DNA of 54,502 bases from a virus (lineage: Duplodnaviria > Caudoviricetes): the IMG/VR virus record IMGVR_UViG_3300020044_001189, positions 1 to 54,502 of that record, one strand, 5' to 3'. The notes below the pieces were generated by a model. That model was not told where the DNA came from. It did no database searches and saw only the letters and a list, made by a program, of their open reading frames with translations. The position numbers and the translations under genes were made by a program. Positions 13,959 to 41,889 of this stretch are shown here, one piece after another. The stretch's first letter is position 1. Each line of letters opens with the position of its first letter.

Positions 13959-15169
13959 TGGCAAAAGAACGAATTCCAACATTAGCTGAGTACAACAACA
14001 ACCCCGGCAACCTGAAACCGCCAAAGAATGTTGTTTACGAAGGCCAACTCGGTCTTGATGAGCACGGCTTTGCCATCTTTGAAAAGCCAGAGTATGGTCG
14101 CAAGGCGCTAGTCAATGACATTAGGTACAAGCTTAAAAATGGCTTGATGACGCCTGAGGCTTTCATTGACAAGTATGCCCCTGCTGGGGATGAAAATCCA
14201 GAAGATTCCAGAGACAACTACAAGCTCCACATAACCCATAACTTGGGTCTCAAGAGTTCAAAGGATGAGTTTCCTGAGGGGTCTGAAGAAAAGATTGCCG
14301 ACCTAATTACGTCGTTTGAGACTGGCAGTCCTTATGTACCAAAAGAAACTACTGAAGGAACATCCCCCACTCCTGTCTCAGGTACAACAAGTAAAGATCG
14401 AGATATAAATCCCATTTATGGGGGTATTGCTGGTGCAACCGCTGGCGTAGGGCTTGCTACCCCGATTGCAACATACAAGAGCTACTACGACCTTGCACGA
14501 TCTGCCGCAAACATGATGCCTCGCTACGAGCCAACCATGGGGATTGAGCCAACAATTGGGTCTTCTATGTCAGCAGGTGAACCTGAACTGACAAGTGGAG
14601 AAAAGTGGACAAAAAATTGGGCTGGCAAAGATGGCGTGCCAGATGCTTCTGCAAAATATCAAAGAAGCAAAGGTCAGGGAAAAGTAACTGGTCGAGTTAC
14701 TAAAATGTGGGGGCCCTCTGAGCCAATGGAGCCCGGCGTCTTTAAGCCCGGACGCCTGTCACTTGCCCCATCTACCACGCCTGAACCTTTTTTAGCCGCC
14801 GCAGAGGATGAAGCCGCACGTTTGGCTTCCCGCGCCAAGCCCGGCCCCGTCAGGTCTGCCTTGGGTCAACTTGCTGGGAACTTTATGATCCCAATCAAGG
14901 CTGGTTTAGCGGGCTTTGGGACAGGGTTTGGTGCACTAGATGCGTACAACAGGGCCAAAGCAGGGGACACCTCAGGATCTGTTGCGGCAGGTACTGGGGC
15001 CCTTGCAAGCGCCTTGTCACCCTTTGTGTCTGGTGCTGGCCCGCTCTCCATGGCGATCCCCATCGGCTTGTACGCAAGAGACAAGATGACAAGGATGACC
15101 CCAGAGCAAGCTAGGGCGCACAATGAGGAAATTAAGAGGCTTGGGTATGACCCAAGCTTTAATCCTTAA
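13958..15169 (+). CDS. Internal virion protein with N-terminal lysozyme-like (NNPGNL) domain
   Basis: NNNPGNLK...FAIF..PE.G..AL...KYAP..EN motif of virion-associated muralytic-like domains. Confidence 0.6.
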   Translation: MAKERIPTLAEYNNNPGNLKPPKNVVYEGQLGLDEHGFAIFEKPEYGRKALVNDIRYKLKNGLMTPEAFIDKYAPAGDENPEDSRDNYKLHITHNLGLKSSKDEFPEGSEEKIADLITSFETGSPYVPKETTEGTSPTPVSGTTSKDRDINPIYGGIAGATAGVGLATPIATYKSYYDLARSAANMMPRYEPTMGIEPTIGSSMSAGEPELTSGEKWTKNWAGKDGVPDASAKYQRSKGQGKVTGRVTKMWGPSEPMEPGVFKPGRLSLAPSTTPEPFLAAAEDEAARLASRAKPGPVRSALGQLAGNFMIPIKAGLAGFGTGFGALDAYNRAKAGDTSGSVAAGTGALASALSPFVSGAGPLSMAIPIGLYARDKMTRMTPEQARAHNEEIKRLGYDPSFNP

Positions 15170-27468: not shown

Positions 27469-27665
27469 TTGACAAACTGATTGTGAGCGCCGTCCTTGGT
27501 ATTGTGGGCTGGGGTGGCATCTACCCTACCGAGCCGCCACCTATGACACCTCATCAACTTAGAGTTAAGGCGATTGAGGCATCCAAGTCAGGGGCATGCA
27601 GGTCTAAGAAGAAGTCCAAGGCCCTAAAAGAGTTCTGTAACCGTAGACAAAATAGGGGTTCATGA
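27465..27665 (+). CDS. Small protein with N-terminal hydrophobic segment
   Basis: AGGAG RBS, ATGA overlap. Confidence 0.5.
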   Translation: MIDKLIVSAVLGIVGWGGIYPTEPPPMTPHQLRVKAIEASKSGACRSKKKSKALKEFCNRRQNRGS

Positions 27666-27677
27666 TAAAATGCGGGC

Positions 27678-27884
27678 ATGAATGCGTTTGATTACAAGGG
27701 CCCAAGCCAAATCGCCAAGCAGATCATGTTTGAGCACAAGACAAGCGTGAACGCGACCAAGGCGGTACAGAAGGCAAGGGACAACGGAGTAGACCCCGGC
27801 ATGCTCTACGGGATCAGCAAAAAGGCTGACGAGAGCATCGCCTACTACAACACAGTACGACGCAAGACAAAGAAACCAACTTGA
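27678..27884 (+). CDS. Hypothetical protein
   Basis: 68 aa ORF before terS. Confidence 0.5.
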   Translation: MNAFDYKGPSQIAKQIMFEHKTSVNATKAVQKARDNGVDPGMLYGISKKADESIAYYNTVRRKTKKPT

Positions 27885-27923
27885 AGTTAAAATCGCGCCC
27901 AATCAGACAAAGCGGAGAGCGCC

Positions 27924-28520
27924 ATGGCTACCAAGAAGACCAAACCACCCGAAGGCTTAAAAGTGCCAAGAGTGTCAAAAGTTTCAAAAGATCATACAAA
28001 TCAAATAGTTACTGAAATAGTAGTAGACGCCGCGCCGACAAAAAAGAAGATAGGTCGCCCCTCCAAGTACACCCCAGAGCTTGCTGACGAGATATGCCAA
28101 AGACTAAGTAACGGAGAACCCTTACGTCAGATATGTAGGGAAGAGTACATGCCAGCTTGGCAAAAGATCTATGAGTGGATGGCTAAGGACGAAAAGCTAT
28201 CGGGATTCATCGCGCGTGCCCGTGAAGTTGGGCAGGATGCCATAGCTGAGGACATCTTCAGCGAGATGATGCAGGAGCCTGAAAGGATCCTTTCTGAGGG
28301 TGGTGGGCGTATTGACGCTGGTTATGTCCAACTGATCAAGGCTAGGGCTGAGATCAAGTTAAAACTTTTGGCTAAGTGGAACCCTAAGCGTTATGGGGAT
28401 CGAGTCCAGTTGGCAGGCTCAAAGGATGAGCCTATGGAGCACAAGGTCGAGGTTACATCCCTGTTTGACGGCATCATGCAGAACTTGGAACTGGCAAAGC
28501 AGGTAAAAGTTAGTGGGTAA
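27924..28520 (+). CDS. terS: Terminase small subunit
   Basis: GRPSKYTPELADEIC.RL..GEPLRQIC...MP; LLAKWNPKRYGD. Confidence 0.85.
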   Translation: MATKKTKPPEGLKVPRVSKVSKDHTNQIVTEIVVDAAPTKKKIGRPSKYTPELADEICQRLSNGEPLRQICREEYMPAWQKIYEWMAKDEKLSGFIARAREVGQDAIAEDIFSEMMQEPERILSEGGGRIDAGYVQLIKARAEIKLKLLAKWNPKRYGDRVQLAGSKDEPMEHKVEVTSLFDGIMQNLELAKQVKVSG

Positions 28521-29943
28521 AGCCATGGATCTGGCTACCCTGTTGGCTGATCCTGACATTCGACAGCAGTTTGAGTCTATACCTGACGAGAACTACAAGG
28601 CGGCATGGGCTTGGAGAACAACTTGGCTGTCTAAGTCCCATGACCATCAGATCTTGCCCGTGGGGGACTGGTGGAGCATTTGGCTGATGCTGGCAGGCAG
28701 GGGCGCTGGAAAGACCCGTACAGCCGCTGAGCAGATCGCTTGGTGGGCATGGAAGCAACCTAATACTAGATGGCTTGTAGCGGCTCCTACGTCCTCTGAC
28801 GTGCGTTCTACCTGCTTTGAGGGTGACTCTGGCCTGTTGGCGATCATCCCCCCTAGATTGATTGAGGACTACAACAAGGCACTGCACGAGCTAAGGCTGA
28901 TCAACGGCTCCCTGATCAAGGGTATACCCGCATCAGAGCCCGAACGGTTTCGTGGCCCACAGTTTCATGGTGCATGGTGCGACGAGCTTGCCGCATGGGA
29001 CTACCTCCAAGAGGCGTGGGATCAGATCATGTTCGGTGTGCGCTTGGGCAAGAGCACCAAGATCATATGCACCACTACCCCCAAGCCTAAGGACTTGATC
29101 CTTGAATTGATTGGCAGGAAGGGTGAGGACGTGGTGGTGACCACCGCCTCAACTTACTCCAACCTTGCAAACCTATCAGACAACTTCCAGCGCCAGATCC
29201 TTCAATACGAGGGAACCAAGCTTGGCAGGCAGGAGATCTATGCCGAGATCATTGATCCTGAGGAGGGTGGCATCGTCAAAAGGGATTGGTTCAGGCTGTG
29301 GCCAGACGGCAAACCCATACCCCAGTTGGAGTTCGTCATACAGTCCTACGACTGCGCTAACACTGACAAGACGGTGAACGACCCAACCGCCGCCATTACC
29401 TTGGGGGTCTTCAAGCCCTTGGATGGTGGGATGTGTGCTTTGGTGCTGGACTGCTGGCAAGACCACATGCAGTACCCTGACCTGCGTCCCAAGGTGATCG
29501 AGGAGTACGAGATCGTCTACGGTGAGGGCAAGGGCAAGAAGAGGGTTGACCTGATACTGGTGGAGGACAAGTCAGCGGGCATAAGTCTTATACAGGACTT
29601 GCAGAGGGCTCACCTGCCTGTGCGGGCGTATAACCCGGGCAAGGCTGACAAGATCCAACGCCTGAGCATTGTGTCCAACATCATCAAAGCTGGCAGGGTG
29701 TGGATCCCTGAGAGCGGCGTCAAGAAGAACTTCGTGCGGGACTGGGCTGAGGGCATGGTCAGTCAGGTCTGCGCCTTCCCTGAGACCGTCCATGACGACT
29801 ATGTGGACGCGCTGTCCCAAGGGCTGAGGTATCTGAGGGACGCTGGTTGGCTGAGCATTGATGCCCCACCAAGGGATGACTATGACCCTGAGGATGTGAT
29901 TGACGCAGGCGGTGGAAAGCGTGAGAATCCATACGCTGTCTAA
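28513..29943 (+). CDS. terL: Terminase large subunit
   Basis: Walker A AGRGAGKT, FRGPQFHGAWCDE, TTTPKP coupling motif, SYDCA and HDDYVDA nuclease motifs. Confidence 0.95.
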   Translation: MGKAMDLATLLADPDIRQQFESIPDENYKAAWAWRTTWLSKSHDHQILPVGDWWSIWLMLAGRGAGKTRTAAEQIAWWAWKQPNTRWLVAAPTSSDVRSTCFEGDSGLLAIIPPRLIEDYNKALHELRLINGSLIKGIPASEPERFRGPQFHGAWCDELAAWDYLQEAWDQIMFGVRLGKSTKIICTTTPKPKDLILELIGRKGEDVVVTTASTYSNLANLSDNFQRQILQYEGTKLGRQEIYAEIIDPEEGGIVKRDWFRLWPDGKPIPQLEFVIQSYDCANTDKTVNDPTAAITLGVFKPLDGGMCALVLDCWQDHMQYPDLRPKVIEEYEIVYGEGKGKKRVDLILVEDKSAGISLIQDLQRAHLPVRAYNPGKADKIQRLSIVSNIIKAGRVWIPESGVKKNFVRDWAEGMVSQVCAFPETVHDDYVDALSQGLRYLRDAGWLSIDAPPRDDYDPEDVIDAGGGKRENPYAV

Positions 29944-29951
29944 GCATCAAG

Positions 29952-30260
29952 ACGCATGGGGATTGGGCAAACCAAGGCGGGCCGTCAGTCGCACTTGTGA
30001 GCCGTCCTGACGGATCAGTCCCCAGCCGTGTTGGTGGTCGCCTTTCGGAACAATAAGCGCGTTTGGCCTAAGTTGCTGTACAGTGAGCCATCAACAGCTA
30101 ACACGCATGGAGATTGCCAGCCACAGGTAGCCAATTGAGGTTACTTGATCGTTGGACAAACAGTCTCCAGCCGTGTTGGTGAAAGTGAATTACTCCGCTA
30201 TGAGTGCCGAGGAATACCTTCGCTCTGTCCCTTGAAGAAATCGGTTTTTAGCCACCAACA
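29952..30260 (+). ncRNA. Array of four stem-loops (A-B-A'-B') with conserved bases and variable inserts; putative non-coding RNA cassette
   Basis: ACGCATGGGGATTG (29952) / ACGCATGGAGATTG (30103) pair with CAGTCCCCAGCCGTGT (30016) / CAGTCTCCAGCCGTGT (30161), with a compensatory G-C to A-T change; TGTTGGTG pairs with CATCAACA / CACCAACA. Confidence 0.7.
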
Positions 30261-30276
30261 ACATTCAGGATAAAAG

Positions 30277-30438
30277 ATGAGGCAATGCAAGTGCGGCGGT
30301 CAGATAAGGGAACATGATCTAGTCGATGGCAGGGTTGCTTGGGCCTGCAACTCCTGCAAGCGGTACGAGAAGGTGACGCTTCCCACAACCCCCGTACCTC
30401 CCTATAATCGCCCCAGTCCTACTTTGGCGGCAATATGA
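30277..30438 (+). CDS. Small zinc-ribbon protein (not in ORF track)
   Basis: MRQCKCGGQ...WACNSCKRYE..., 53 aa; AGGA RBS; ATGA overlap with 30435. Confidence 0.6.
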   Translation: MRQCKCGGQIREHDLVDGRVAWACNSCKRYEKVTLPTTPVPPYNRPSPTLAAI

Positions 30439-33400
30439 CCAAACCAATCGACCCCAAGCTTGCTAAGTTTATTGCCGAGAGCAAGGTCAAGCACCGTGTG
30501 TATCACGGAACCATGAGCGACGTAAAAAAGTTTAAGACCCCCGCCTACTTTGGCGGTAAGGATGTCGCCAATCAATTCTCTGACCCCGAATACCTGTTTG
30601 GTTCAAGTGAGCTTAACGAGGGCGAGCACCCCAACGTGATTCCTGTCCACCTGAATTTGAAGAACCCAAAGATCTTCACCAAGGAAGAGGATTACGAGAA
30701 GCACGTTATGGATGGCGGTTTAGATCCACAGCGCTGGATTAAAAAGGGTCACGATGGCGTTATTTACGCGCCCAATGGGGATATTGAGCACCCTGACGCA
30801 TACTATGTAGCCTTTCACCCCAATCAGATCAAGTCGGCTATTGGCAACAGGGGCACATACAGCAAGAGGTCGGGCGACATCACCATGGATAAGGGAGGTT
30901 CAGTGGAGCCCAAGCAAACCGTCAAGGCATACAAGATGTTTCGGGTTGATCCAAAGCAACCCGGCAAGCTATTCCCTCTGTTTGTCAACGCCAACACGCC
31001 TGTGCCAATGAATGAATGGATTGACGCCGAAGAGGGTGAGATGTCCAACGGTAAGGTCAAGAGCAAGATTGGCCCACTTGCCTACCGCCCCGGCTGGCAC
31101 GCTGGCGACCTTCCCCTTGCCACACACATCGGTGACAAGGACGAAGAACAGAAGGCTGAGACCACCCGCATCAACAAATTGCGAGACGCCATGGTTGCTG
31201 ACCTTGGGTACGACAAGGAAGCCCAGCGTATTGCCAAAAAGATGTATCCCTACCCCAGTTGGGTAAACGCCCCTCGCCTGCGCAACCCAAGGCACATGTG
31301 GGCTGAGATTGAGATGCCCCATGACGTAGATTGGCAGTCAGAGGCTGAGAAGCGTGGCTACAACGATAAGGGCAAGTTTGTTGCTAGTGAGGCGCACATT
31401 ACCGACCAACTACCCAAGGGCGGGCACTACAGGTACAAGACCAACGCCAACATGACAGGCAATTGGCTCATCGGCGGGGCTATGAAGGTCAACCGCATAC
31501 TGGATGACGCTGAGGTCAAGTCCATCAATAAAGCCGCTGGCACTACCGACCTGCCCCGCCTGACCCCCATGAAGAAGGAAAAGTTTGGCTTTGCTGGTGG
31601 TGGCTCCGTTGCCCCCGACGAGTGGAAGGCTGAGGAGCATGTCAACTACCGCGACCCCAAGACAACCAAGATTGAAGACTGGAAGTGGCGCAAGCTTAAG
31701 GAAGTGCTGACTGACGTGCCGTTGACAGAAGTCCCTGACTACATCCAAAAGGGATACGGCGAGTTCATGAACCAACAGCTTTCTAAGGCAAAGGCTGGTC
31801 AACTGACACCCCGCGACCTGCTAAAGGCATTCACCATCACCCAGTCCAGCATTGGTCGTGGTGGCTTGTCCCATGCGTCGGCTACCAAGACTGGCATGAA
31901 GCTACCCAACACAGGCGAGGAAGTACGCCCAGAAGGCGCGTTTGCTGAGTGGTTGGGCTCACCCATGGGGCAGAGGTACTTGAACGCCGCAGAGCGCGGT
32001 TTGATACATCACCCTGCCCTTGGTGACATCCAGCAGAAGTTTGCCCCGTTTGGTAAGCACAACCAATTGGTTGACCAAATGGCTTACGCCGCTCAGATGA
32101 TGCCCAAGCTGGCGCAGACCATGAACCAAGCTGTCACTGGCGGCAAGGACGAGTACCGTGACTGGGCTGAGCAGATGCGTGGTATTGCTGGCGCTAAGTC
32201 TGGCTTCATTGGATCCATGCTGGGACGTGGCGACCTGCCTACATTGGATGCCCGCCAACTGAACCTGCACACCCTGCCCGCCAAGGTGGGCGTAGGCTCC
32301 ATCATGAGTCGGGGCAAGGGCACAGGGGCACGAGAGGCTGTGGATCGTCTGGCATCAAGACAGCAGGCCATGAACCTTAATGTTGATCCATCCATGATGC
32401 CCCACTACCAACACCTGACCCACCATGCAGTGTGGGATGCCATGGGTAAGAACAAGACCACCCACGATGATCTGGTGCGGGCAATGCGTGGGTACGCTGA
32501 TGGTGGTGCGGCTCGTATGGCTAAGGGTGGTAACCCAACCGTAGAGGAGATGCGCAGGGCTATTGCCAAGGCATCTGGGTCTAACCCACCTATGGCTGAG
32601 AAGAACCTTACAACCCTGCAAGACTTTCACACGACGCTAGGCGACAAGGTTCGCGCTGGGGTAATGGAAGCCAAGAAACAAATGGACGCCTTTGACTACA
32701 AGTACGACAAGGGCCATCGAGTGTTTACTGAGGACAGCGCCAAGAAGAACAGAGCGCCATACGAGATTCTTGAACGTCACCGCCATGGCAACCAACTCAT
32801 GTGGGAAGGCAAGCCATGGAACAGCAAGAAGATTATTGACCCTGAGACGGGCAAAGCCAAGCGCACACCCTATGAACCCGCCTATCGCGTGCGCGGCGAA
32901 ATCGGAGAGATGATCCTGCCTGAGTCAGCCATCAAGGGTCGTGTTGATATGGCGCGAGGTGGCTTAGTCCACATGGCGGAAGGCGGCGATGTTAATAAAG
33001 CCAAATTTCTTGCAAAAAGCAAAATTAAAGAACGGCTATATCACGGAACCACAAAAGATTTTGGGTCATTCAGCCACAAGCATCAATACAGTGGGGAAGG
33101 TGGAAGTCACTCTGGTTCTGGCTTTTATTTCACCGACAATCCAGAATCAGCATCAAGATATTCCATGATGAGGGGCGAATCGGGGTCAAATGTGATGCCC
33201 GTGCATCTCAACATTAAAAAGCCATTGCATTTCGATTGGGAGCAAGGCGAGACAACAGGCGCAAAACTTAAACTGACACCAGCACAAGTGCGATCAATTA
33301 TGTTGGCTCATCCCAAGATTAAAGATGAGGATGAAAGCCCATTGACAAATTGGGGCGACATACGGGGCGCAAGTTTTAATAAAACTCTTAATGATGCGGT

Positions 33401-33686
33401 CAACAGTTATGCTGGGTCATCAATGTTGGCGGCATTGAGAAATGATTTTTTTGGTGACAATCACGAGCAATGGCTCCGCGCTTTGCATAAAGCGACTGGA
33501 TATGATTCGGGAACTACTGTCACACCTAACGGTGAGCGACATTACATTGCATGGTTTCCTGAGCAAATCAAATCAGCCATTGGCAACCGTGGAACCTACG
33601 ACACCAATGTGGCGGACATTACCAAGAAGCGTGGCGGTAGGGTCACCCACGCCCACCACCTAGATATTGAGGAGCGCCCCCTATGA
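30435..33686 (+). CDS. Large polyvalent-type protein with two ADP-ribosyltransferase-like (YHGT) domains and other modules separated by xxGG linkers
   Basis: VYHGT and LYHGT domains, both ending QIKSAIGNRGTY; internal AYRPGWHAGDLP module. Confidence 0.65.
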   Translation: MTKPIDPKLAKFIAESKVKHRVYHGTMSDVKKFKTPAYFGGKDVANQFSDPEYLFGSSELNEGEHPNVIPVHLNLKNPKIFTKEEDYEKHVMDGGLDPQRWIKKGHDGVIYAPNGDIEHPDAYYVAFHPNQIKSAIGNRGTYSKRSGDITMDKGGSVEPKQTVKAYKMFRVDPKQPGKLFPLFVNANTPVPMNEWIDAEEGEMSNGKVKSKIGPLAYRPGWHAGDLPLATHIGDKDEEQKAETTRINKLRDAMVADLGYDKEAQRIAKKMYPYPSWVNAPRLRNPRHMWAEIEMPHDVDWQSEAEKRGYNDKGKFVASEAHITDQLPKGGHYRYKTNANMTGNWLIGGAMKVNRILDDAEVKSINKAAGTTDLPRLTPMKKEKFGFAGGGSVAPDEWKAEEHVNYRDPKTTKIEDWKWRKLKEVLTDVPLTEVPDYIQKGYGEFMNQQLSKAKAGQLTPRDLLKAFTITQSSIGRGGLSHASATKTGMKLPNTGEEVRPEGAFAEWLGSPMGQRYLNAAERGLIHHPALGDIQQKFAPFGKHNQLVDQMAYAAQMMPKLAQTMNQAVTGGKDEYRDWAEQMRGIAGAKSGFIGSMLGRGDLPTLDARQLNLHTLPAKVGVGSIMSRGKGTGAREAVDRLASRQQAMNLNVDPSMMPHYQHLTHHAVWDAMGKNKTTHDDLVRAMRGYADGGAARMAKGGNPTVEEMRRAIAKASGSNPPMAEKNLTTLQDFHTTLGDKVRAGVMEAKKQMDAFDYKYDKGHRVFTEDSAKKNRAPYEILERHRHGNQLMWEGKPWNSKKIIDPETGKAKRTPYEPAYRVRGEIGEMILPESAIKGRVDMARGGLVHMAEGGDVNKAKFLAKSKIKERLYHGTTKDFGSFSHKHQYSGEGGSHSGSGFYFTDNPESASRYSMMRGESGSNVMPVHLNIKKPLHFDWEQGETTGAKLKLTPAQVRSIMLAHPKIKDEDESPLTNWGDIRGASFNKTLNDAVNSYAGSSMLAALRNDFFGDNHEQWLRALHKATGYDSGTTVTPNGERHYIAWFPEQIKSAIGNRGTYDTNVADITKKRGGRVTHAHHLDIEERPL

Positions 33687-36600
33687 AGAAGCTGGTAGGC
33701 GAAGGTAAGCCATTCCACTCTGCTGTTGACAAGACAGCCGCCTTACTCAAACGCAAGGTGGGCACTGGTGCTGAGTTCATGAAGGAACTGATGGGTGTGT
33801 CTGGCGTCAAGCCTACCGAGCTTCAGGAGCGTGGTCTGACAGAGATCATGGGTATGCCCAAGATGACGCATGACCAGTTTATGGCGGCATTGAGCGCCAA
33901 TCCTGCGCCAAAGATTCGTGAGAAAGTGTTAAGTGACGAAGATGAAGGCGGGGATGATCCTCGTCATCTAACGCCAGAAGAACGTAATTACGGGCCAAAC
34001 AATCAAACACACCATCGAAAATGGACATTGCCCGGTGGCGAGAACTATCGAGAGATGCTGATTAAAGCCCCCAAGGGTGTTGACAATCAAGAAAAGATCA
34101 TGGAGTTGGAAGCCAAACTTCGCCGCATCCCTATGTTCAATTCAACTCCTGAACAACAGGCGGATATTGCTAAGTATTACAACCAAATACGAGACTTAAA
34201 GGCCGAAGAAGCCGCATCTCCCAAACCATTTCGCGGTGTAGAACATCACTTTGGCGGCGAACCCAATATCCTTGCCAGCATGCGTGTGAAAGACCGCCTT
34301 GTGCCTGACTTAGAAGGCCCACACAACGTCACAATAATTGGCGAGGGTGGGGTAAGCAACAAAAAATTTAACACCCGTGAAGAAGCAAATGCCTTTGCTG
34401 ACGTGAAAAAGCAAGGCGGATACAAGACCAAGATCACACCACTGAACAACAAGAAGTATTTGCACCTTGAAGAGTTGCAGTCCGACTGGCATCAAAAAGG
34501 GCGTGATAAGGGATACAAGGATTTAGACGTTGACAACCAGCTTCAAAAAAAATATCGTGAGCTTAATGAAATAGGCGAATCTTACAAAAAACTTGCTATA
34601 GATCAAAGGGTGGCTACGGCTGTTGCCAATGGCATGGACGAAGCAGAAGCAAGACGCCTGATCTTAATTGGCACAGAAAACACACCATTAGAACAATATG
34701 CCCCTGACGAAAAATCAAAAATAGATATTCTTCGCAGACAACAAGAGCTAGAAGAACTAGAAAATAAGGCAAACCTTGTTCCTGATGCCCCATTCAAAAA
34801 GAACTGGGAAGAGATGGCGCTCAAGCGTCTGATCCACCATGCGGCAGAGAAGGGCTACCACGGTGTTGTGGTGACCCCCGGCGTAGAGCAGGCTAAGCGT
34901 TACAGCATTGGCAACCACATTGATGAGTTGCACTACAACCCTGAGACACACAGACTTATTGGCTCAAACGAAGGCCAACGCATAGTTGACAAGAAATCCG
35001 TGCCGCCAGAAGAACTTATTGAGCATGTTGGCAAAGAGGTTGCGTCCAAATTGATGCAACAAGAACCAAACGTCAATGGCTTGCGATCATTGACAGGCGA
35101 ACAGCTTCACATTGGCGGCGAAGGCATGAAGGGTTTCTACGACAAGAAGGTTCCCAACATCCTGAATAGCATTGGCAAGAAGTACGGCGTAAAGACTGAG
35201 TTGGGTGGGCACAAGCTACTTGGCGACCCATCAGAGCGTGCCGACGCATCAGAGCGGCTTGGTCATGCGGATGTGCGTTTTGCTGACATGACCACGCCGC
35301 AAATTCAAGCATTCAATGCCAAGTTGGATGAAGCAAACGCAAAACAACTGCACTACTTCCCTATCACGGAAGACATGCGCAAAGACGTATTAGCAAACGG
35401 TCTACCCCTGTACAACAAGGGTGGCACAGTACACATGGCAAAGGAAGGCGATATGGATCACATGATGCTTGAGATGATGGGTAGGCGCATGGCTACAGGC
35501 GGAAGCCCTACAACCAAGGGTTACGTTACCCATGAGCCAAAGAAGCCCCACCCAGAGGTCGGCACACGCTTTAAGGCTACCCCACAAGGCAACCTTGCGG
35601 CTATGAAGGCCTTTGATTTGATGAAGCACGAGGGTAAGGGCTCAATCGTTCCCATCCCCTATGACGCTACTACCCGCGACAATCGGGTTACCGAGGTGTC
35701 TGGGCATAACTTAATCAACCCATTGGTCACGGAGGCAGGCTTTGATTACTCGCTTGACCCCACCAATATGGCGCAAAACATTGGTGGCGCATCCAACAGT
35801 GGCATAGCCAAACGGGTGCAAGATCGTGTTAACCAAGCCGCAAAGGAACACAAGGGAGACGTATTCCTTGCCCCAAATACCATGGGCGAAGATGCCGAAA
35901 ACTTCTCGCATCACCCTGCCCATATTGTGTTGGACTTGATGGCACAGCGACAGCTAAACAAGAACACATTGCGAGCCTTGAGTGATGACTTGCGTGGTCA
36001 GCCCGAATTGAAGCGAAATGCAAGAACTGGGGAAGTTACAAAGACTTACCCATACACAAAGTTTCTTGGGTATGACCATCCAAACATGTTTCAACAAGTT
36101 ATAAAGGGCGGGCATGGTTTGGAGGCTACGCCCGGCGATCTGCGCAAAAAGATGATGGAGCGCCTCAGTTTGGTCAACATGCAAAAGCTGTTGGACTACA
36201 ACATGGGCGACCTGAAGGCGGCTATCCTTGATCCTGAACTGGCGACAGATCCCAAGGCATACATGGGGCGCACGTTTGTCAAGGCGCAACCCGGCGCGGC
36301 ATTGCGTCCCAGCACACACACCTCATACGACACTGATTACACGGGCATAAACGAAGGCGGTCTTGGTTCTAATCGTCCATTTGAGGTCCTGATGCCCGAT
36401 GTCACTGAAAGCATTTACCAAGAACTAAAAGCCCGCCCAGCCAAGACTGTAAAGACGCCAGCACAAATGCGGGCACAGGTAGTTGGCGCAATAGAAAAGC
36501 GCAAAGAAAAGTTTGCTCAGCCAATTAATGCTCGTGTGATCAACAATGCTGGCTTGTATGAAGAGGGCCTAAAACAAGGTGAGTTTGATCCTAAGAACGT

Positions 36601-37054
36601 AGATTCAGTGTTGGCTTACTTCAAGCGCAAGGGTGGATACAACAAGGGCGGCGTGGTTCGCAAAGCCGAGGGTGGAACAATTGACATCAAGGGCATTGGT
36701 GTCAGAGAAGCCCCCAACATGGATGTCAAGGCTTTCATTTCGCCTAGACCCGCAATGAAGAACTCATTGCCTGTGGGCGGTGTATTCCAGCAAACGCCCC
36801 AACAGCCTGCGCAGGGTATGCCCCAAGGCCAGCCGCCTCAGGGAATGCCACAAGGAATGCCTCAAGGTATGCCACAAGGAGCGCCTCCCCAAGGAATGCC
36901 ACCACAGCCGCCAAGCAACATCTTGCAGATGACCCCTCAGGGGCAAGCAATGAGCGCCATCAAGCCCCCTCAGATGGCTCGTGGGGGCAAAGTTGATCGT
37001 GACATGATGATGCTTCACGTTATGAACCGCAAAATGAAAGTAAAGCATGGATGA
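33683..37054 (+). CDS. Large polyvalent-type/internal virion protein
   Basis: PGGENYREML, EELQSDWHQKGR, PDAPFK..W...ALKR and GEGMKGFYD motifs; xxGG linkers; QGMP repeat tail. Confidence 0.6.
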   Translation: MKKLVGEGKPFHSAVDKTAALLKRKVGTGAEFMKELMGVSGVKPTELQERGLTEIMGMPKMTHDQFMAALSANPAPKIREKVLSDEDEGGDDPRHLTPEERNYGPNNQTHHRKWTLPGGENYREMLIKAPKGVDNQEKIMELEAKLRRIPMFNSTPEQQADIAKYYNQIRDLKAEEAASPKPFRGVEHHFGGEPNILASMRVKDRLVPDLEGPHNVTIIGEGGVSNKKFNTREEANAFADVKKQGGYKTKITPLNNKKYLHLEELQSDWHQKGRDKGYKDLDVDNQLQKKYRELNEIGESYKKLAIDQRVATAVANGMDEAEARRLILIGTENTPLEQYAPDEKSKIDILRRQQELEELENKANLVPDAPFKKNWEEMALKRLIHHAAEKGYHGVVVTPGVEQAKRYSIGNHIDELHYNPETHRLIGSNEGQRIVDKKSVPPEELIEHVGKEVASKLMQQEPNVNGLRSLTGEQLHIGGEGMKGFYDKKVPNILNSIGKKYGVKTELGGHKLLGDPSERADASERLGHADVRFADMTTPQIQAFNAKLDEANAKQLHYFPITEDMRKDVLANGLPLYNKGGTVHMAKEGDMDHMMLEMMGRRMATGGSPTTKGYVTHEPKKPHPEVGTRFKATPQGNLAAMKAFDLMKHEGKGSIVPIPYDATTRDNRVTEVSGHNLINPLVTEAGFDYSLDPTNMAQNIGGASNSGIAKRVQDRVNQAAKEHKGDVFLAPNTMGEDAENFSHHPAHIVLDLMAQRQLNKNTLRALSDDLRGQPELKRNARTGEVTKTYPYTKFLGYDHPNMFQQVIKGGHGLEATPGDLRKKMMERLSLVNMQKLLDYNMGDLKAAILDPELATDPKAYMGRTFVKAQPGAALRPSTHTSYDTDYTGINEGGLGSNRPFEVLMPDVTESIYQELKARPAKTVKTPAQMRAQVVGAIEKRKEKFAQPINARVINNAGLYEEGLKQGEFDPKNVDSVLAYFKRKGGYNKGGVVRKAEGGTIDIKGIGVREAPNMDVKAFISPRPAMKNSLPVGGVFQQTPQQPAQGMPQGQPPQGMPQGMPQGMPQGAPPQGMPPQPPSNILQMTPQGQAMSAIKPPQMARGGKVDRDMMMLHVMNRKMKVKHG
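36812..36904 (+). repeat. 12-bp-period coding repeats (QGMP)n
   Basis: QGMPQGQPPQGMPQGMPQGMPQGAPPQGMPP. Confidence 0.7.
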
Positions 37055-39509
37055 CCTACTAGAAAACGAAGACGGCTCAATAGACGTTGAGTTGCCAGAC
37101 ATGAGCACCGAGGTGCAAGAGATGCCTGACGGCTCTGCTGTGGTGACCATGGAGGACATCGAGGGCCCTGAAGAATCGCCAGACTTCTATGCCAACTTGG
37201 CTGAGTCAATGAGCGCTTCCGAAATGAGCGAGATCGCCATGCGCTACATGGACTTGTTGGCGAACGACAAGGAAGCACGCAAGGAGCGCGATAAGAAGTA
37301 CGAGGAAGGTCTAAAGCGCACGGGTATGGGCAATGACGCCCCCGGCGGCGCAACCTTTGCAGGGGCCTCCAAGGTCGTTCACCCCGCCATGGCTGAGGGT
37401 TGTGTTGACTTTGCCGCCCGCGCCATGAAGGAGTTGTTCCCACCCGACGGCCCTGTGCGCACCAAGATTTTGGGTAAGGTTGACGACGAGAAGACCGAGC
37501 GTGCTGAGCGTAAGCGCGACTACATGAACTGGCAGATCACCGAGCAGATCGAAGAGTTCCGCGACGAGCAAGAACAGTTGTTAACCCAGCTTCCCCTTGG
37601 TGGTTCCCAATACTTCAAGATCTGGTACGACGACAACAAGAAGCGCCCATGCGTGGAGTTCTTGCCTATTGATCGTGTGATCCTGCCCTTTGCGGCTACC
37701 AACTTCTACACCGCCCAACGTGCGGCAGACGTAAACGAGATTACCCAGTGGGAATTCAAACGTCGAGTTAAGAGCGGCATGTACCGCGACATTGACTTTG
37801 TGCGTGCCACCGAAGAGGTCGAGCCTACCGCCGCACAGAAGGCCAACCAAAAGATTGAGGGCAAGAAGTGGCAGGACAACGATGACGGCTTGCGCAAGGT
37901 CTACCATATCTACACATGGTTGGAGCTTGAGGACGACAAGTTTGCCAAGGGAGACTCTGCCCCCTACATCCTGATGATCGACGAACTCAGCACCGAGGTG
38001 GTGGGCCTATACCGTAATTGGGAAGAGCAAGACGAGACCATGACCAAGATGGATTGGATTGTGGAATTCAAATTCATCCCTTGGAGGGGTGTCTACGCCA
38101 TTGGGCTACCTCACCTTATCGGCGGCATTTCAGCCGCCTTGACGGGCTCATTGCGGGCCTTGTTGGACTCTGCGCACATCAACAACGCCGCAACTATGCT
38201 GAAGTTGAAGGGTGCAAAGATGTCTGGGCAGTCCCAGCAGGTTGATGTCACCCAAGTGGCGGAGATTGAGGCGGCTCCCGGCGTCGATGACATTCGCAAG
38301 ATTGCCATGCCCATGCCGTTTAACCCACCCTCCCCCGTGCTTTTCCAGTTGCTAGGCTTTTTGGACACTGCCGCCAAGGGTGTGGTATCCACCGCAGAAG
38401 AGAAGATTGCTGACGCAAACTCCAACATGCCTGTGGGCACAACCCAAGCCCTTATTGAGCAGGGTGCTGTGGTGTTCTCAGCCATCCATGCACGCCTGCA
38501 CGACAGCCAAGCAAGGGTCTTAAAGATCCTTGGACGCCTGAATCGTTGGCACTTGGACGAGCAACGCAAGGGTGAGGTGGTCGCTGACCTTGAAATCAGT
38601 CGCCAAGACTTTGCCACCAACACCGATGTCGTGCCTGTAAGCGACCCACACATCTTCTCTGAGACCCAACGTATGGCTCAGATGCAGGCTGTGATGCAGT
38701 TGATGCAAGGAAACCCTGACGTCTTCAATAAAAAGAAGGTTGTTGAGCGATTCTTAAAGCAATTGAAGGTTCCAGCCATCAACGAGTTGATGATTGATGT
38801 CCCTGCACCTGAGATGCGCACCATCGCAGACGAAAATGCGGCTATGTCGATTGGTCAGCCATCGTATGCCTACATACAGCAAGACCACATCTCCCACATC
38901 CAAGGGCACTTGCAGTTTGCAAACGACCCTGCCTACGGCTCAAACCCCTTCTTTGCGCCCCAATTCACGCCCCACGCTATCGAGCACATCAAGCAACACA
39001 TGACTTTGTGGTACTTGAACCGCATGAATGGCTATGTAGCACAGGCTCGCGGTGGAAAACCCGTGACCAACTACGAGGATGCGAAGCTGACGGGCATCAT
39101 TGACCAAGTTTTTGCCGCTGTTGGACAGCATGTGAGCTTGGATACCTCCGAGGTGTTCCAACAAATCATGCCGCAGTTGCAGGCACTGATGCAACGTGCC
39201 CAACAAATGCAAAAGCCACCTGTTTTGCCACCAGATGCGCAGGTCGTCAAGGACACCAGCATGGCGGAGACGCAACGCAAACAGCAAAAAGACCAGTCAG
39301 ACGCTCAGTTTGCGGCTCAAAAGCTTCAGGCAGAGCAACAAGAGCACCAGATGGACATCCAAGCAAAGATTGCCATCGAAAATGCAAAGCTGTCGCACCA
39401 AACCATCCAAAATTTGGGGCAAATTCAGCTAGATGCGGCACAAAACCCGCCTCAACCACCTCAGTTACCACAACCACCTCAAGGAGAGCCAAATGGCAAT
39501 ATCGGATAA
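37047..39509 (+). CDS. Portal protein (P22-like, large)
   Basis: FAGASKVVHP, ELFPPDGPVRT, LPLGGSQYFK and PVGTTQALIEQG motifs; Q-rich C-terminal barrel. Confidence 0.85.
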   Translation: MDDLLENEDGSIDVELPDMSTEVQEMPDGSAVVTMEDIEGPEESPDFYANLAESMSASEMSEIAMRYMDLLANDKEARKERDKKYEEGLKRTGMGNDAPGGATFAGASKVVHPAMAEGCVDFAARAMKELFPPDGPVRTKILGKVDDEKTERAERKRDYMNWQITEQIEEFRDEQEQLLTQLPLGGSQYFKIWYDDNKKRPCVEFLPIDRVILPFAATNFYTAQRAADVNEITQWEFKRRVKSGMYRDIDFVRATEEVEPTAAQKANQKIEGKKWQDNDDGLRKVYHIYTWLELEDDKFAKGDSAPYILMIDELSTEVVGLYRNWEEQDETMTKMDWIVEFKFIPWRGVYAIGLPHLIGGISAALTGSLRALLDSAHINNAATMLKLKGAKMSGQSQQVDVTQVAEIEAAPGVDDIRKIAMPMPFNPPSPVLFQLLGFLDTAAKGVVSTAEEKIADANSNMPVGTTQALIEQGAVVFSAIHARLHDSQARVLKILGRLNRWHLDEQRKGEVVADLEISRQDFATNTDVVPVSDPHIFSETQRMAQMQAVMQLMQGNPDVFNKKKVVERFLKQLKVPAINELMIDVPAPEMRTIADENAAMSIGQPSYAYIQQDHISHIQGHLQFANDPAYGSNPFFAPQFTPHAIEHIKQHMTLWYLNRMNGYVAQARGGKPVTNYEDAKLTGIIDQVFAAVGQHVSLDTSEVFQQIMPQLQALMQRAQQMQKPPVLPPDAQVVKDTSMAETQRKQQKDQSDAQFAAQKLQAEQQEHQMDIQAKIAIENAKLSHQTIQNLGQIQLDAAQNPPQPPQLPQPPQGEPNGNIG

Positions 39510-41340: not shown

Positions 41341-41889
41341 ATGACTGAATCTCGTTTAAAAAAATCTCTGAATGCAGGTGGTCGCAATGATCGCGCAAGC
41401 GAGGACGCAAGCCGCCAAGCACCAGAAGACAAGTTCATTTCTACGCAGGAACGTAAACGCATGTGGAGCGAAGAATGGACGCAATCAGCACTGCCCAAAC
41501 TACCGGGCCTCGATGGTTGGCATTTATGCTGGCTATCATCAACAAATAGTTATGACAGCATTGACAAGAGAATTCGTCTTGGTTACGTCCCAGTTAAGTC
41601 TGAGGAGTTGCCCGGATACGAAGACTACCGAGTCAAGTCTGGCGAACATGTTGGTTACATTTCATGCAACGAGATGTTGCTTTTCAAACTCCCAATGGAC
41701 GTCTATCAGGAATACATGGTGCACATGCATCATGAACAGCCACAAGAGGAAGAGGACAAAATCCGAATCCAGATAGAAAGCCTGCAAGGACAGCGAGACA
41801 GCAACGGAAAGTCGCTAGTAAGTGTTGAGGGCGAGGGAATGGGCAAATTTGATCAGCAATCCGCAAAGGTTCCCGTATTTCACGGGTAA
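41341..41889 (+). CDS. Conserved head-region protein
   Basis: LP...GWHLCWL...RIRLGYVPV motif; between scaffold and capsid genes. Confidence 0.65.
   Translation: MTESRLKKSLNAGGRNDRASEDASRQAPEDKFISTQERKRMWSEEWTQSALPKLPGLDGWHLCWLSSTNSYDSIDKRIRLGYVPVKSEELPGYEDYRVKSGEHVGYISCNEMLLFKLPMDVYQEYMVHMHHEQPQEEEDKIRIQIESLQGQRDSNGKSLVSVEGEGMGKFDQQSAKVPVFHG

Follow-up and report, generated by a model that had tools for sequence, protein, structure and literature searches.

Conserved tRNA-like frames with exchangeable cargo in a non-coding RNA array of a phage genome

Phage T4 encodes two small RNAs, RNAC and RNAD, which have tRNA-like paired ends and are processed with tRNAs. They are classed as late RNAs of unknown function (PMC9697503). 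The locus under study lies in IMG/VR record IMGVR_UViG_3300020044_001189, a complete virus genome of 54,502 base pairs (bp) with terminal repeats; this whole stretch of DNA is referred to below as the window. Beginning 2 nucleotides (nt) past the stop codon of the gene for the large terminase subunit (terL), positions 29945-30260 hold a non-coding array of four small structured RNAs (A1, B1, A2 and B2), in which variable inserts, or cargoes, are enclosed by two conserved frames (A and B). Like the T4 tRNA region with RNA C and D, where stable RNAs are encoded between tRNA genes and made along with these, the arrays of relatives adjoin tRNA genes on the same strand (21 loci, and the podovirus record MW202484.1), but the window genome is without any tRNA gene. 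Unlike that region, the arrays employ the same two frames over and over, each for about 100 families of cargo and in phages that are unrelated.

Comparable systems are synthetic tRNA-guide RNA (tRNA-gRNA) arrays and the engineered tRNA scaffold, in which cargo stands in place of the anticodon arm and is processed and protected by the cell. Use of the scaffold to produce recombinant RNA in Escherichia coli has been described (PMC3753655). As in the scaffold, two relatives of the array (loci L087 and L064) hold cargo where the anticodon arm would be, and, as in tRNA-gRNA arrays, the units stand in tandem and would be split by tRNA-processing enzymes. Unlike the scaffold, the array is natural, most of its units (including those of the window) have lost the D and T arms and keep only an acceptor-like stem, and a further frame (A), longer and internally looped, is present. 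Bacterial Y RNAs such as YrlA likewise comprise tRNA-like modules without a decoding anticodon, and some Y RNAs or tRNA mimics are phage-encoded; in contrast to the array, the tRNA-like domain of YrlA is nested in a Ro-binding stem and Y RNAs are not arrays of exchangeable cargo, and the window has neither an Rfam Y RNA match nor a Ro/TROVE gene (PF05731, 0/1 for the window phage). In murine gammaherpesvirus 68, a non-aminoacylated viral tRNA-like element is used to express and process the small RNAs that are linked to it (the TMERs). These differ in being eukaryotic, with Pol III promoters and tRNase Z cleavage, and in that the pre-miRNA hairpins lie downstream of the tRNA-like part and not inside a constant stem.

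At the level of DNA, the array resembles integron attC arrays in its imperfect inverted repeats, which have an AAC...GTT core, unpaired bases at the centre and an end structure that varies, and integron cassettes in the tandem order, the variable DNA between repeats and strong turnover. It is unlike an integron in that the cassettes are 24-203 nt long and non-coding, the blocks are conserved in sequence, the strand asymmetry is of the RNA type and accompanied by tRNA geometry, and there is no integrase: tyrosine recombinase PF00589 was found in neither the window (0/1) nor 20 array-bearing records (0/20, 11 of them at least 90% complete), as against a control found in 14/14 genomes. When compared by eye with the attC core RYYYAAC/GTTRRRY, CACCAAC and GTTGGTG match at 5/7 positions each and in a fitting order, and no extrahelical bases were seen. 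Like a CRISPR array, this one intersperses short conserved repeats with variable segments that are unrelated but similar in size. Here, however, successive repeats lie in opposite orientation and base-pair across the insert between them, and the inserts are structured families common to several phages instead of unique spacers; the original prediction, made from the letters of the window alone, was right that this is not a CRISPR-type array of direct repeats. REP/BIME elements differ from the array, which occupies one locus per genome in 12/12 near-complete genomes, none of which holds a Y1 (RAYT) transposase (PF01797, 0/12).

A survey of 10,006 candidate viral structured RNAs includes tRNA-like candidates and 14 candidates upstream of the large terminase gene (PMC10690425). 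The frames are not included in Rfam release 15, and no description of such frames was found in the literature, where the supplements of the 2023 survey of viral structured RNAs may list some cargoes or frames. The kind of element, tRNA-like RNAs and small RNAs of tRNA clusters, is known, whereas the architecture of two frames with exchangeable cargo across phage lineages appears to be new.

Architecture of the array and covariation of stem A

One block of about 21 nt, repeated imperfectly and in alternately inverted orientation, is the building unit of the array (Table 1). Over 21 nt, the left block, CAyCA-AsACG-CA-TGGGGATTG, is an imperfect inverted repeat of the right block, CAGTCyCCA-GC-CGT-GTTGGTG; in the window these repeats read CATCAAGACGCATGGGGATTG and CAGTCCCCAGCCGTGTTGGTG, and their arms are longer than had been described. 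What the original prediction took for two repeat types are the two halves of this one inverted block. The non-coding array itself, with its two stem types, had been placed correctly: a repeat finder located A-left copies at 29949-29965 and 30100-30116 (spacing 151 nt) and joint copies of A-right and B-left at 30016-30036 and 30161-30181 (spacing 145 nt, 20/21 identical), and also recovered the inverted pairings that make stems A and B. Allowing up to three mismatches, the 21-mer occurs twice in the window, against 0.00 expected from 100 shuffles.

Stem A is formed by a left block and the next right block over 16 positions and encloses cargo A. It comprises 5 bp, a conserved 2x2 mismatch (C.C, A.G) and 9 bp that include a U.G wobble; with the CATCA/TGGTG extension, the A helix covers 16-21 positions around a symmetric internal loop. 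Stem B (7-8 bp) joins the last 8 nt of a right block to the first 8 nt of the next left block and encloses cargo B; in the window, 30030-30036 pairs with 30089-30095, and 30175-30181 with 30253-30259. Several details noted earlier were reproduced: the A arms differ once, in a compensatory manner (GGGGA/TCCCC against GGAGA/TCTCC), the G-T wobble (G-U in RNA) of stem B in B1 is G-C in B2, and A-right overlaps B-left, by 3 nt. Internal units carry about 7 extra nt between the B-right and A-left parts (AACCTAC in most relatives; GCTA plus AC in the window), and the AGACG form of left block 1 is typical of first units. Folding of 29940-30280 gave a z-score of -3.17 on the plus strand, with 0/100 shuffles as good, and of -0.04 on the minus strand; folded singly with their frames, the units scored -6.49 (A2), -1.50 (A1), -1.84 (B1) and -1.78 (B2). 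Both frames present T(-1), G(+1), a stem of 7-9 bp and then an unpaired A, like the end of a tRNA.

Table 1. Coordinates of the array and of neighbouring genes in the window (aa, amino acids; ORF, open reading frame)
Feature	Position	Strand	Description
terS	27924-28520		Sf6 type
terL	28513-29943	+	476 aa; Pfam Terminase_6N and Terminase_6C; ORF list
Gap holding the array	29944-30276		333 nt
Left block 1	29945-29965	+	CATCA is a B-right-like head; 16-nt A-left arm AGACGCATGGGGATTG at 29950-29965
Cargo A1	29966-30015	+	50 nt; hairpin and pseudoknot
Right block 1	30016-30036	+	CAGTCCCCAGCCGTGTTGGTG; A-right 30016-30031, B-left 30029-30036
Cargo B1	30037-30088	+	52 nt; extends stem B into a long irregular hairpin
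Left block 2	30089-30116	+	B-right CATCAACA at 30089-30096, linker GCTA, A-left ACACGCATGGAGATTG at 30101-30116
Cargo A2	30117-30160	+	44 nt; nested hairpin CAGGTAGCC/GGTTACTTG within CCAGC/GTTGG
Right block 2	30161-30181	+	CAGTCTCCAGCCGTGTTGGTG
Cargo B2	30182-30252	+	71 nt; multi-helix fold
B-right 2	30253-30260	+	CACCAACA; closes stem B of unit 2; end of array
Cys-rich ORF	30277-30438	+	53 aa; no Pfam match
First gene of next unit	30435-33686	+	1083 aa; C-terminal ART-PolyVal domain (Pfam)

Relatives were compared as 159 non-redundant oriented units from 126 sources (125 fetched loci, given L numbers, and the window). Across these units, stem A position 11 is G-C in 116, A-T in 22 and G.T in 20, position 10 is G-C in 144, G.T in 7 and A-T in 5, and position 14 is T.G in 147, C-G in 9 and T-A in 2, whilst positions 6 and 7 are conserved mismatches (C.C in 147 and A.G in 151). 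Because the prevailing T.G at position 14 would be C.A on the other strand, stem A is read as RNA on the plus strand. The proposed helix covaries among 66 distinct frames, the rows of which were picked by sequence anchors together with at least 12/16 pairs and include two false units (L043:2562-2624 and L052:10070-10215) that were kept in the count and add unpaired cells: 94.4% of cells are paired against 89.4 +/- 0.4 in shuffles, 41 cells are changed on both sides against 9.9 +/- 2.7, and the covariation score is 0.228 against 0.131, with 0/500 shuffles reaching the observed value in each case. Shifting the 3' partner by 1-3 columns lowers the share of paired cells to 32-45%. An independent set of matches, selected solely through the A-left 14-mer so that the left arm is held constant, has the right arm in 58/78 cases, about 20 of the 78 being chance, and substitutions in the right arm keep the pair 32 times and break it three times. 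In the variant frame of ACAAGTGTGTGGATTG and CAGTCCATACTCTTGT, positions 4 and 10 have changed in a compensatory manner, and the helix is preserved. As judged by sequence comparison, stem A is a real covarying helix that is read on the plus strand.

The variant frame marks a second subfamily, found in L014, L025, L026, L053, L077, L130 and L132, which encloses a conserved A cargo of about 100 nt and often stands ahead of canonical units in one array. Chance matches to the A-left 14-mer lie inside the GDTHGDW motif of metallophosphoesterase genes of large phages (L222, L225, L239 and L254), a coincidence that is a trap for motif-based mining. A third A-left-like site in the window, at 14532, is coding and partnerless and is put down to chance.

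Kinship with tRNA, cargo turnover and spread

Five B elements of relatives score above the Rfam tRNA (RF00005) threshold, for which the cut-off is 29 bits (L087, 44.9; L037, 44.2; L042, 40.1; L088, 48.6; L064, 47.8). The acceptor stem, U8-A9, D arm, T arm and discriminator A of L087 and L064 align with high posterior probability, GTTGGTG/CACCAAC and the A that follows falling on tRNA model positions 1-7 and 65-71. Their anticodon part is enlarged or replaced (42 nt instead of 11 in L087, 14 nt instead of 7 in L064), and a decoding anticodon arm with a 5-bp stem and 7-nt loop is absent from both. This alignment to the model demonstrates that stem B in relatives is an acceptor stem, belonging to tRNA-like RNAs in which other sequence takes the place of the anticodon arm, and stem B of the window is the same stem. 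ARAGORN calls none of the five tRNA-scoring elements, and it calls one A element (L048) an odd tRNA. A word search found D-arm and T-arm words together in 11/135 B inserts, and a T-loop-like word no more than 22 nt from A-right in 9/159 A inserts.

True tRNA genes also adjoin the arrays. A tRNA-Met(CAT) with encoded CCA lies just downstream on the same strand in 21 loci, arrays of relatives abut tRNA-Met, tRNA-Pro and tRNA-Asn genes on the same strand, and in MW202484.1 the encoded CCA end of a tRNA with anticodon GTT directly abuts A-left; 8/12 near-complete array-bearing genomes are without any tRNA gene. First units are mostly preceded by CCA or YCA, often after a GC-rich hairpin. The earlier statement that the locus is not a tRNA holds for the window, where ARAGORN and Rfam find none, and no named family was matched in the region, as had also been said. 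Given the identity of stem B with an acceptor stem, the five relatives that pass Rfam and the adjoining tRNA genes, that statement nevertheless misses the main point. Directly before the first A-left, loci L024, L010, L050, L013, L110, L030 and L074 carry a short GC-rich hairpin and then CCA (in one example, a hairpin of GNRA type and GCCA). These hairpins resemble minihelices that end like the 3' side of a tRNA, and they might be additional, very small elements of the arrays.

The inserts of the four window units belong to four different clusters, in keeping with the claim that they are unrelated. Overall, 149 distinct A inserts form 98 clusters and 133 distinct B inserts form 93, so that there are about 190 clusters among about 290 units in all, and 12/16 families with at least three distinct members show compensatory pairs (1-5) with few non-canonical cells. 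Alignment of the A1 family bears out the predicted pairing of CCGTCAG with CTGACGG and refines it: CCGTCAG is a hairpin loop that pairs with the downstream CTGACGG as a pseudoknot. In the six sequences of this family, five pairs of the inner hairpin change on both sides and the loop-to-3' pairing is invariant. The fold of B2 is common to L094 and L011, where the hairpin ACTC..GAGT becomes ACAC..GTGT and ACGC..GCGT; A2 has one relative, in L076, and B1 none among the sampled units. At gathering threshold, Rfam found only tRNA in 28 related loci and matched no non-tRNA cargo. The suggestion of antisense or guide RNAs was not borne out for the phage itself, as the longest complementarity of a cargo to either strand of the phage genome is 10-13 nt, the chance level. 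A large superfamily of B cargo is found in L036, L041, L044, L096, L106, L112, L123, L124, L129 and L132, with a 5' hairpin whose loop reads GGGTTAGCGCC, a variable middle and a 3' module CACTGCTTTATGTGAGC beside B-right; it also occurs as B-only units without stem A straight after terL, and nothing in Rfam matches it.

At least 120 IMG/VR contigs carry the right-block 21-mer without a mismatch. In relatives, A-left lies 20-104 nt upstream of the right block (median 50) and, in 135/159 units, B-right lies 24-203 nt downstream (median 71). Counted by recognised units, 98 of the 126 arrays hold one unit, 24 hold two, three hold three and one holds four. Among loci chosen by TerL similarity alone (L121-L200), 21/80 have a unit within the flanks of 3 kilobases. 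Turnover at a fixed position is rapid, as had been proposed for the inserts: after terL the window carries A1-B1-A2-B2, L121 (96% TerL identity) has the same A1 family with a different B cargo, in L122 (95%) both cargoes are different, L123 and L124 (86%) have a B-only unit and tRNA-Met, and L125 (88%) has no array. The cargo breakpoints between relatives coincide with block edges.

The arrays are also independent of the phage backbone. They adjoin at least three terminase lineages; the window TerL aligns with that of L004 only over the nuclease half (34% identity), and with those of L056 and L009 only around the Walker A motif. Clusters of flanking ORFs include 24 that are terL-like and 16 that are terS-like, and further neighbours are terS, HNH endonuclease, DUF1376 and Toprim proteins. 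In species-representative genomes the exact 21-mer occurs in four small phage-like contigs, from three Burkholderiales metagenome-assembled genomes (MAGs) and one Flavobacterium MAG. Three of those MAGs have no tRNA-like GTTGGTG...CACCAAC element outside the phage-like contigs, and in 301 Burkholderiales genomes matches with 2-3 mismatches are no commoner than those to a reversed control pattern; as a host origin of the frames was found in neither set, assignment to a Burkholderiales-type host is a weak guess. A blastn search with the entire region returned nothing from cultured phages at 1e-5. With a 33-nt query and E up to 10, a single chance match turned up, in a coding-like stretch of a Ralstonia phage, alongside one true match, to the uncultured spring-water podovirus MW202484.1 (L213). 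In that record, positions 41503-41717 hold the tRNA and the A element at the end of a circular 'complete genome', the B part spans the record start, and no RNA feature is annotated over the stretch examined.

Transcription, release of the cargo and rival explanations

In 33/119 arrays the first unit is preceded by a promoter-like (sigma-70-like) site that ends 3-30 nt before it, against 9/117, 9/114, 7/115 and 3/119 at control positions, and the downstream ORF is co-oriented in 100/119 arrays, the upstream ORF in 69/105. In one run of a freshwater-sediment metatranscriptome, contigs cover 30161-30339 with two differences, and another contig matches 29993-30036 and then continues into a different B cargo, the break falling exactly at the block edge. 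The run contained 7% of the sampled words and was available as contigs that give neither strand nor ends and in which uncovered parts are uninformative; these contigs hint only weakly at expression. The view of arrays as units complete with their own terminator was given up, as terminators follow only 6/124 arrays, below the 14/124 of the reverse-complement control; with terminators so rare, arrays would usually be part of longer transcripts. In one group of phages (L006, L020, L022, L080, L092 and L115), GTTGGTA comes after the last A element and leads by way of a conserved GCAGTTGCC word to a strong intrinsic terminator, behind which lie a ribosome-binding site and a gene start, an arrangement like that of a promoter-proximal terminated leader.

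The account that seems, on balance, probable is that of a transcribed cassette array, in which the tRNA-like frames would hand the inserts over to the host nucleases of tRNA maturation, to be released as stable small RNAs. The window array would be made as a 3' extension of the terminase transcript; elsewhere, the array would stand behind a promoter of its own in many phages, often together with real tRNA genes. The frames would offer each cargo to the host tRNA-maturation machinery, with the 5' side cut by RNase P and the 3' side trimmed by endo- and exonucleases, and RNase III acting on the long, internally looped A helix as a possible alternative or addition, and each cargo would be set free as a stable small RNA. 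The predicted 5' ends are G+1 of GGGGATTG and of GTTGGTG, and the predicted 3' ends lie at or just past the discriminator A. Release by these enzymes is favoured by the tRNA-like ends of both frames together with the precedent of Mycobacterium smegmatis YrlA, a tRNA-like Y RNA for which a 7-bp acceptor stem is reported to suffice for an RNase P cut and the addition of CCA (PMC4201824). As the frames are identical in unrelated phages, they may double as recombination handles for cargo exchange.

Several points weigh against this account. The RNA data are contigs of one metatranscriptome, possibly with DNA, and offer no read-level discrete small RNAs or ends, and terminators are scarcer than in the control, which makes the arrays usually part of longer transcripts. 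Stem A pairs what would be the 5' leader with the 3' trailer, which should hinder RNase P and fits RNase III better, and processing signals alone do not account for 21 nt that are identical between unrelated phages. The four cargoes of the window are not tRNA-like: ARAGORN finds 0 tRNAs in the window, the Rfam tRNA model has 0 matches in its whole genome, and Rfam finds nothing in the array region at E up to 10 (a chance long non-coding RNA match falls outside it). The frames encode no CCA, their tails being AGCC, AACC, AGCT or AACA, whereas the adjoining true tRNAs do encode it; a search of the phage for a CCA-adding enzyme gene found none. Two-sided covariation of stem B is sparse, its variants being GTTGGTA with TGCCAAC, TACCAAC or TATTAAC in 7/16 units and GTTGGCG with CGCCAAC in 2/8. 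For stem A, collection of units by anchors, with at least 12/16 pairs for the count of 66 frames, inflates both conservation and pairing, and right-arm substitutions keep a pair by chance in 9/36 possible cases and already in 9/12 for transitions.

A rival account is that the long A helix is mainly an RNase III-type stem for processing or stabilising mRNA, the inserts being tolerated apical extensions and not released effectors. Intergenic RNase III sites of T7 are hairpins of about 20 bp with internal loops, and the processing stalks of rRNA are comparable; the extended A helix, with its conserved symmetric 2x2 internal loop, would suit such a role, as would the position of arrays at transcription-unit boundaries, by genes that they could stabilise, and the few terminators behind them. 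This is nevertheless unlikely, since passive inserts should not form about 100 conserved families with compensatory pairs, some inserts are tRNA bodies with D and T arms, RNase III needs little sequence identity and so leaves 21 invariant nt unexplained, and the close relative L125 does without the array.

It has also to be considered that the blocks are sites in DNA, either for attC-like recombination of a folded single strand or as REP/BIME-type transposase ends, at which small cassettes would enter and leave, with the RNA folds secondary. Alternating inverted copies of one block are what such sites look like: attC sites have the layout R''-L''...L'-R', which the extended A hairpin CACCAAs..GTTGGTG resembles in its AAC/GTT core, its unpaired bubble at the centre and its variable end. 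The breakpoints at block edges and the movement of the frames between unrelated phages point in the same direction. Against this stand the absence of PF00589 and PF01797 from the record sets given above, the match to the attC core at only 5/7 positions in each block, and the single array locus per genome, without dispersed copies. The left and right blocks moreover differ in a fixed, strand-specific manner (positions 6, 7 and 14), the cargo has tRNA geometry relative to the frame, and promoters are enriched upstream; this reading is quite improbable.

A cis-acting leader of the late operon, in which only the basal stems function, would be a third possibility, either as a regulator of translation or stability or in antitermination like that of HK022 put, an RNA that modifies RNA polymerase. 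Many arrays do lie directly downstream of a promoter and upstream of terS/terL, conservation is in the basal stems and not the apices, and six loci have a strong terminator before the next gene. The window array, however, follows terL, close relatives hold 0, 1 or 2 units there, and the unit number varies from 1 to 4. There is a terminator to override in only 6/124 arrays, and the cargo itself is under structural selection and in some cases tRNA-like; a leader role is accordingly very improbable. Finally, although arrays usually lie by terS/terL and the lambda cosB has inverted binding sites upstream of terS, the further suggestion of the original prediction that this is a packaging-related RNA, or that the blocks are packaging signals (TerS sites, cosB- or pac-like), is barely credible, as the exact 21-mer stands beside mutually unalignable terminases, whereas packaging sites co-vary with the terminase, L125 lacks the array at 88% TerL identity, cargo differs between phages with 95-96% identical TerL, and strand-specific wobble pairs and tRNA bodies indicate RNA.

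As to the role of the cargoes, one guess is that they bind, or act as decoys for, host factors which sense tRNA-like RNAs, the shape of tRNAs or their ends. One report describes tRNA tails as a target of immunity (PMC12851939). A bolder and more tentative proposal, rather unlikely in its full extent, is that the arrays form a universal plug-in RNA-effector platform of unrelated freshwater phages, in which tRNA-derived frames, kept identical for cargo swaps by recombination, would enable any phage to take up, express and leave to host processing one of a very large pool of structured RNAs for counter-defence or host takeover, for example as decoys for tRNA-directed nucleases or toxins. Turnover of cargo at 95-96% TerL identity has the pattern of an arms race, which makes the arrays an obvious place to look for RNA-based counter-defence; such a platform, if real, would be the RNA counterpart of protein 'morons' and anti-defence islands. 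If the frames act as tRNA-type processing handles, they would be a natural version of the tRNA scaffold of RNA engineering and would open a large untapped set of phage small RNAs, with at least about 100 families per frame from a few hundred units. The two short frame motifs are a simple handle for mining such RNAs from viromes, and the frames might provide ready-made, host-processed expression cassettes for Burkholderiales-type hosts.

Neighbouring genes in the window

A Pfam scan at the locus covered four neighbouring ORFs (Table 1). Behind the array lie three very large consecutive ORFs (1083, 1123 and 820 aa; 30435-39509), the first of which has a C-terminal ADP-ribosyltransferase domain like those of 'polyvalent proteins'; a separate portal gene was not identified. 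No terminator-like site was found on the plus strand in 27500-31000, and a weak promoter-like site lies at 29900-29928, within the end of terL. The 53-aa Cys-rich ORF is missing at the corresponding position in L121, L122 and L125, and it contains a promoter-like site, CTTCCCA, about 17 nt and CCCTATAAT, at 30380-30411 (TTCCCA / 17 nt / TATAAT at 30380-30408). The ORF may be a recent insertion or not a gene. In the window, CCCTATAATYGC, a promoter-like word, does not recur in the manner of a phage promoter, with one exact occurrence and four within two mismatches against 5.4 expected. The promoter-like site at 30380-30411 is kept just upstream of the first post-terminase gene in the window, L121, L122, L125, L129 and L131.

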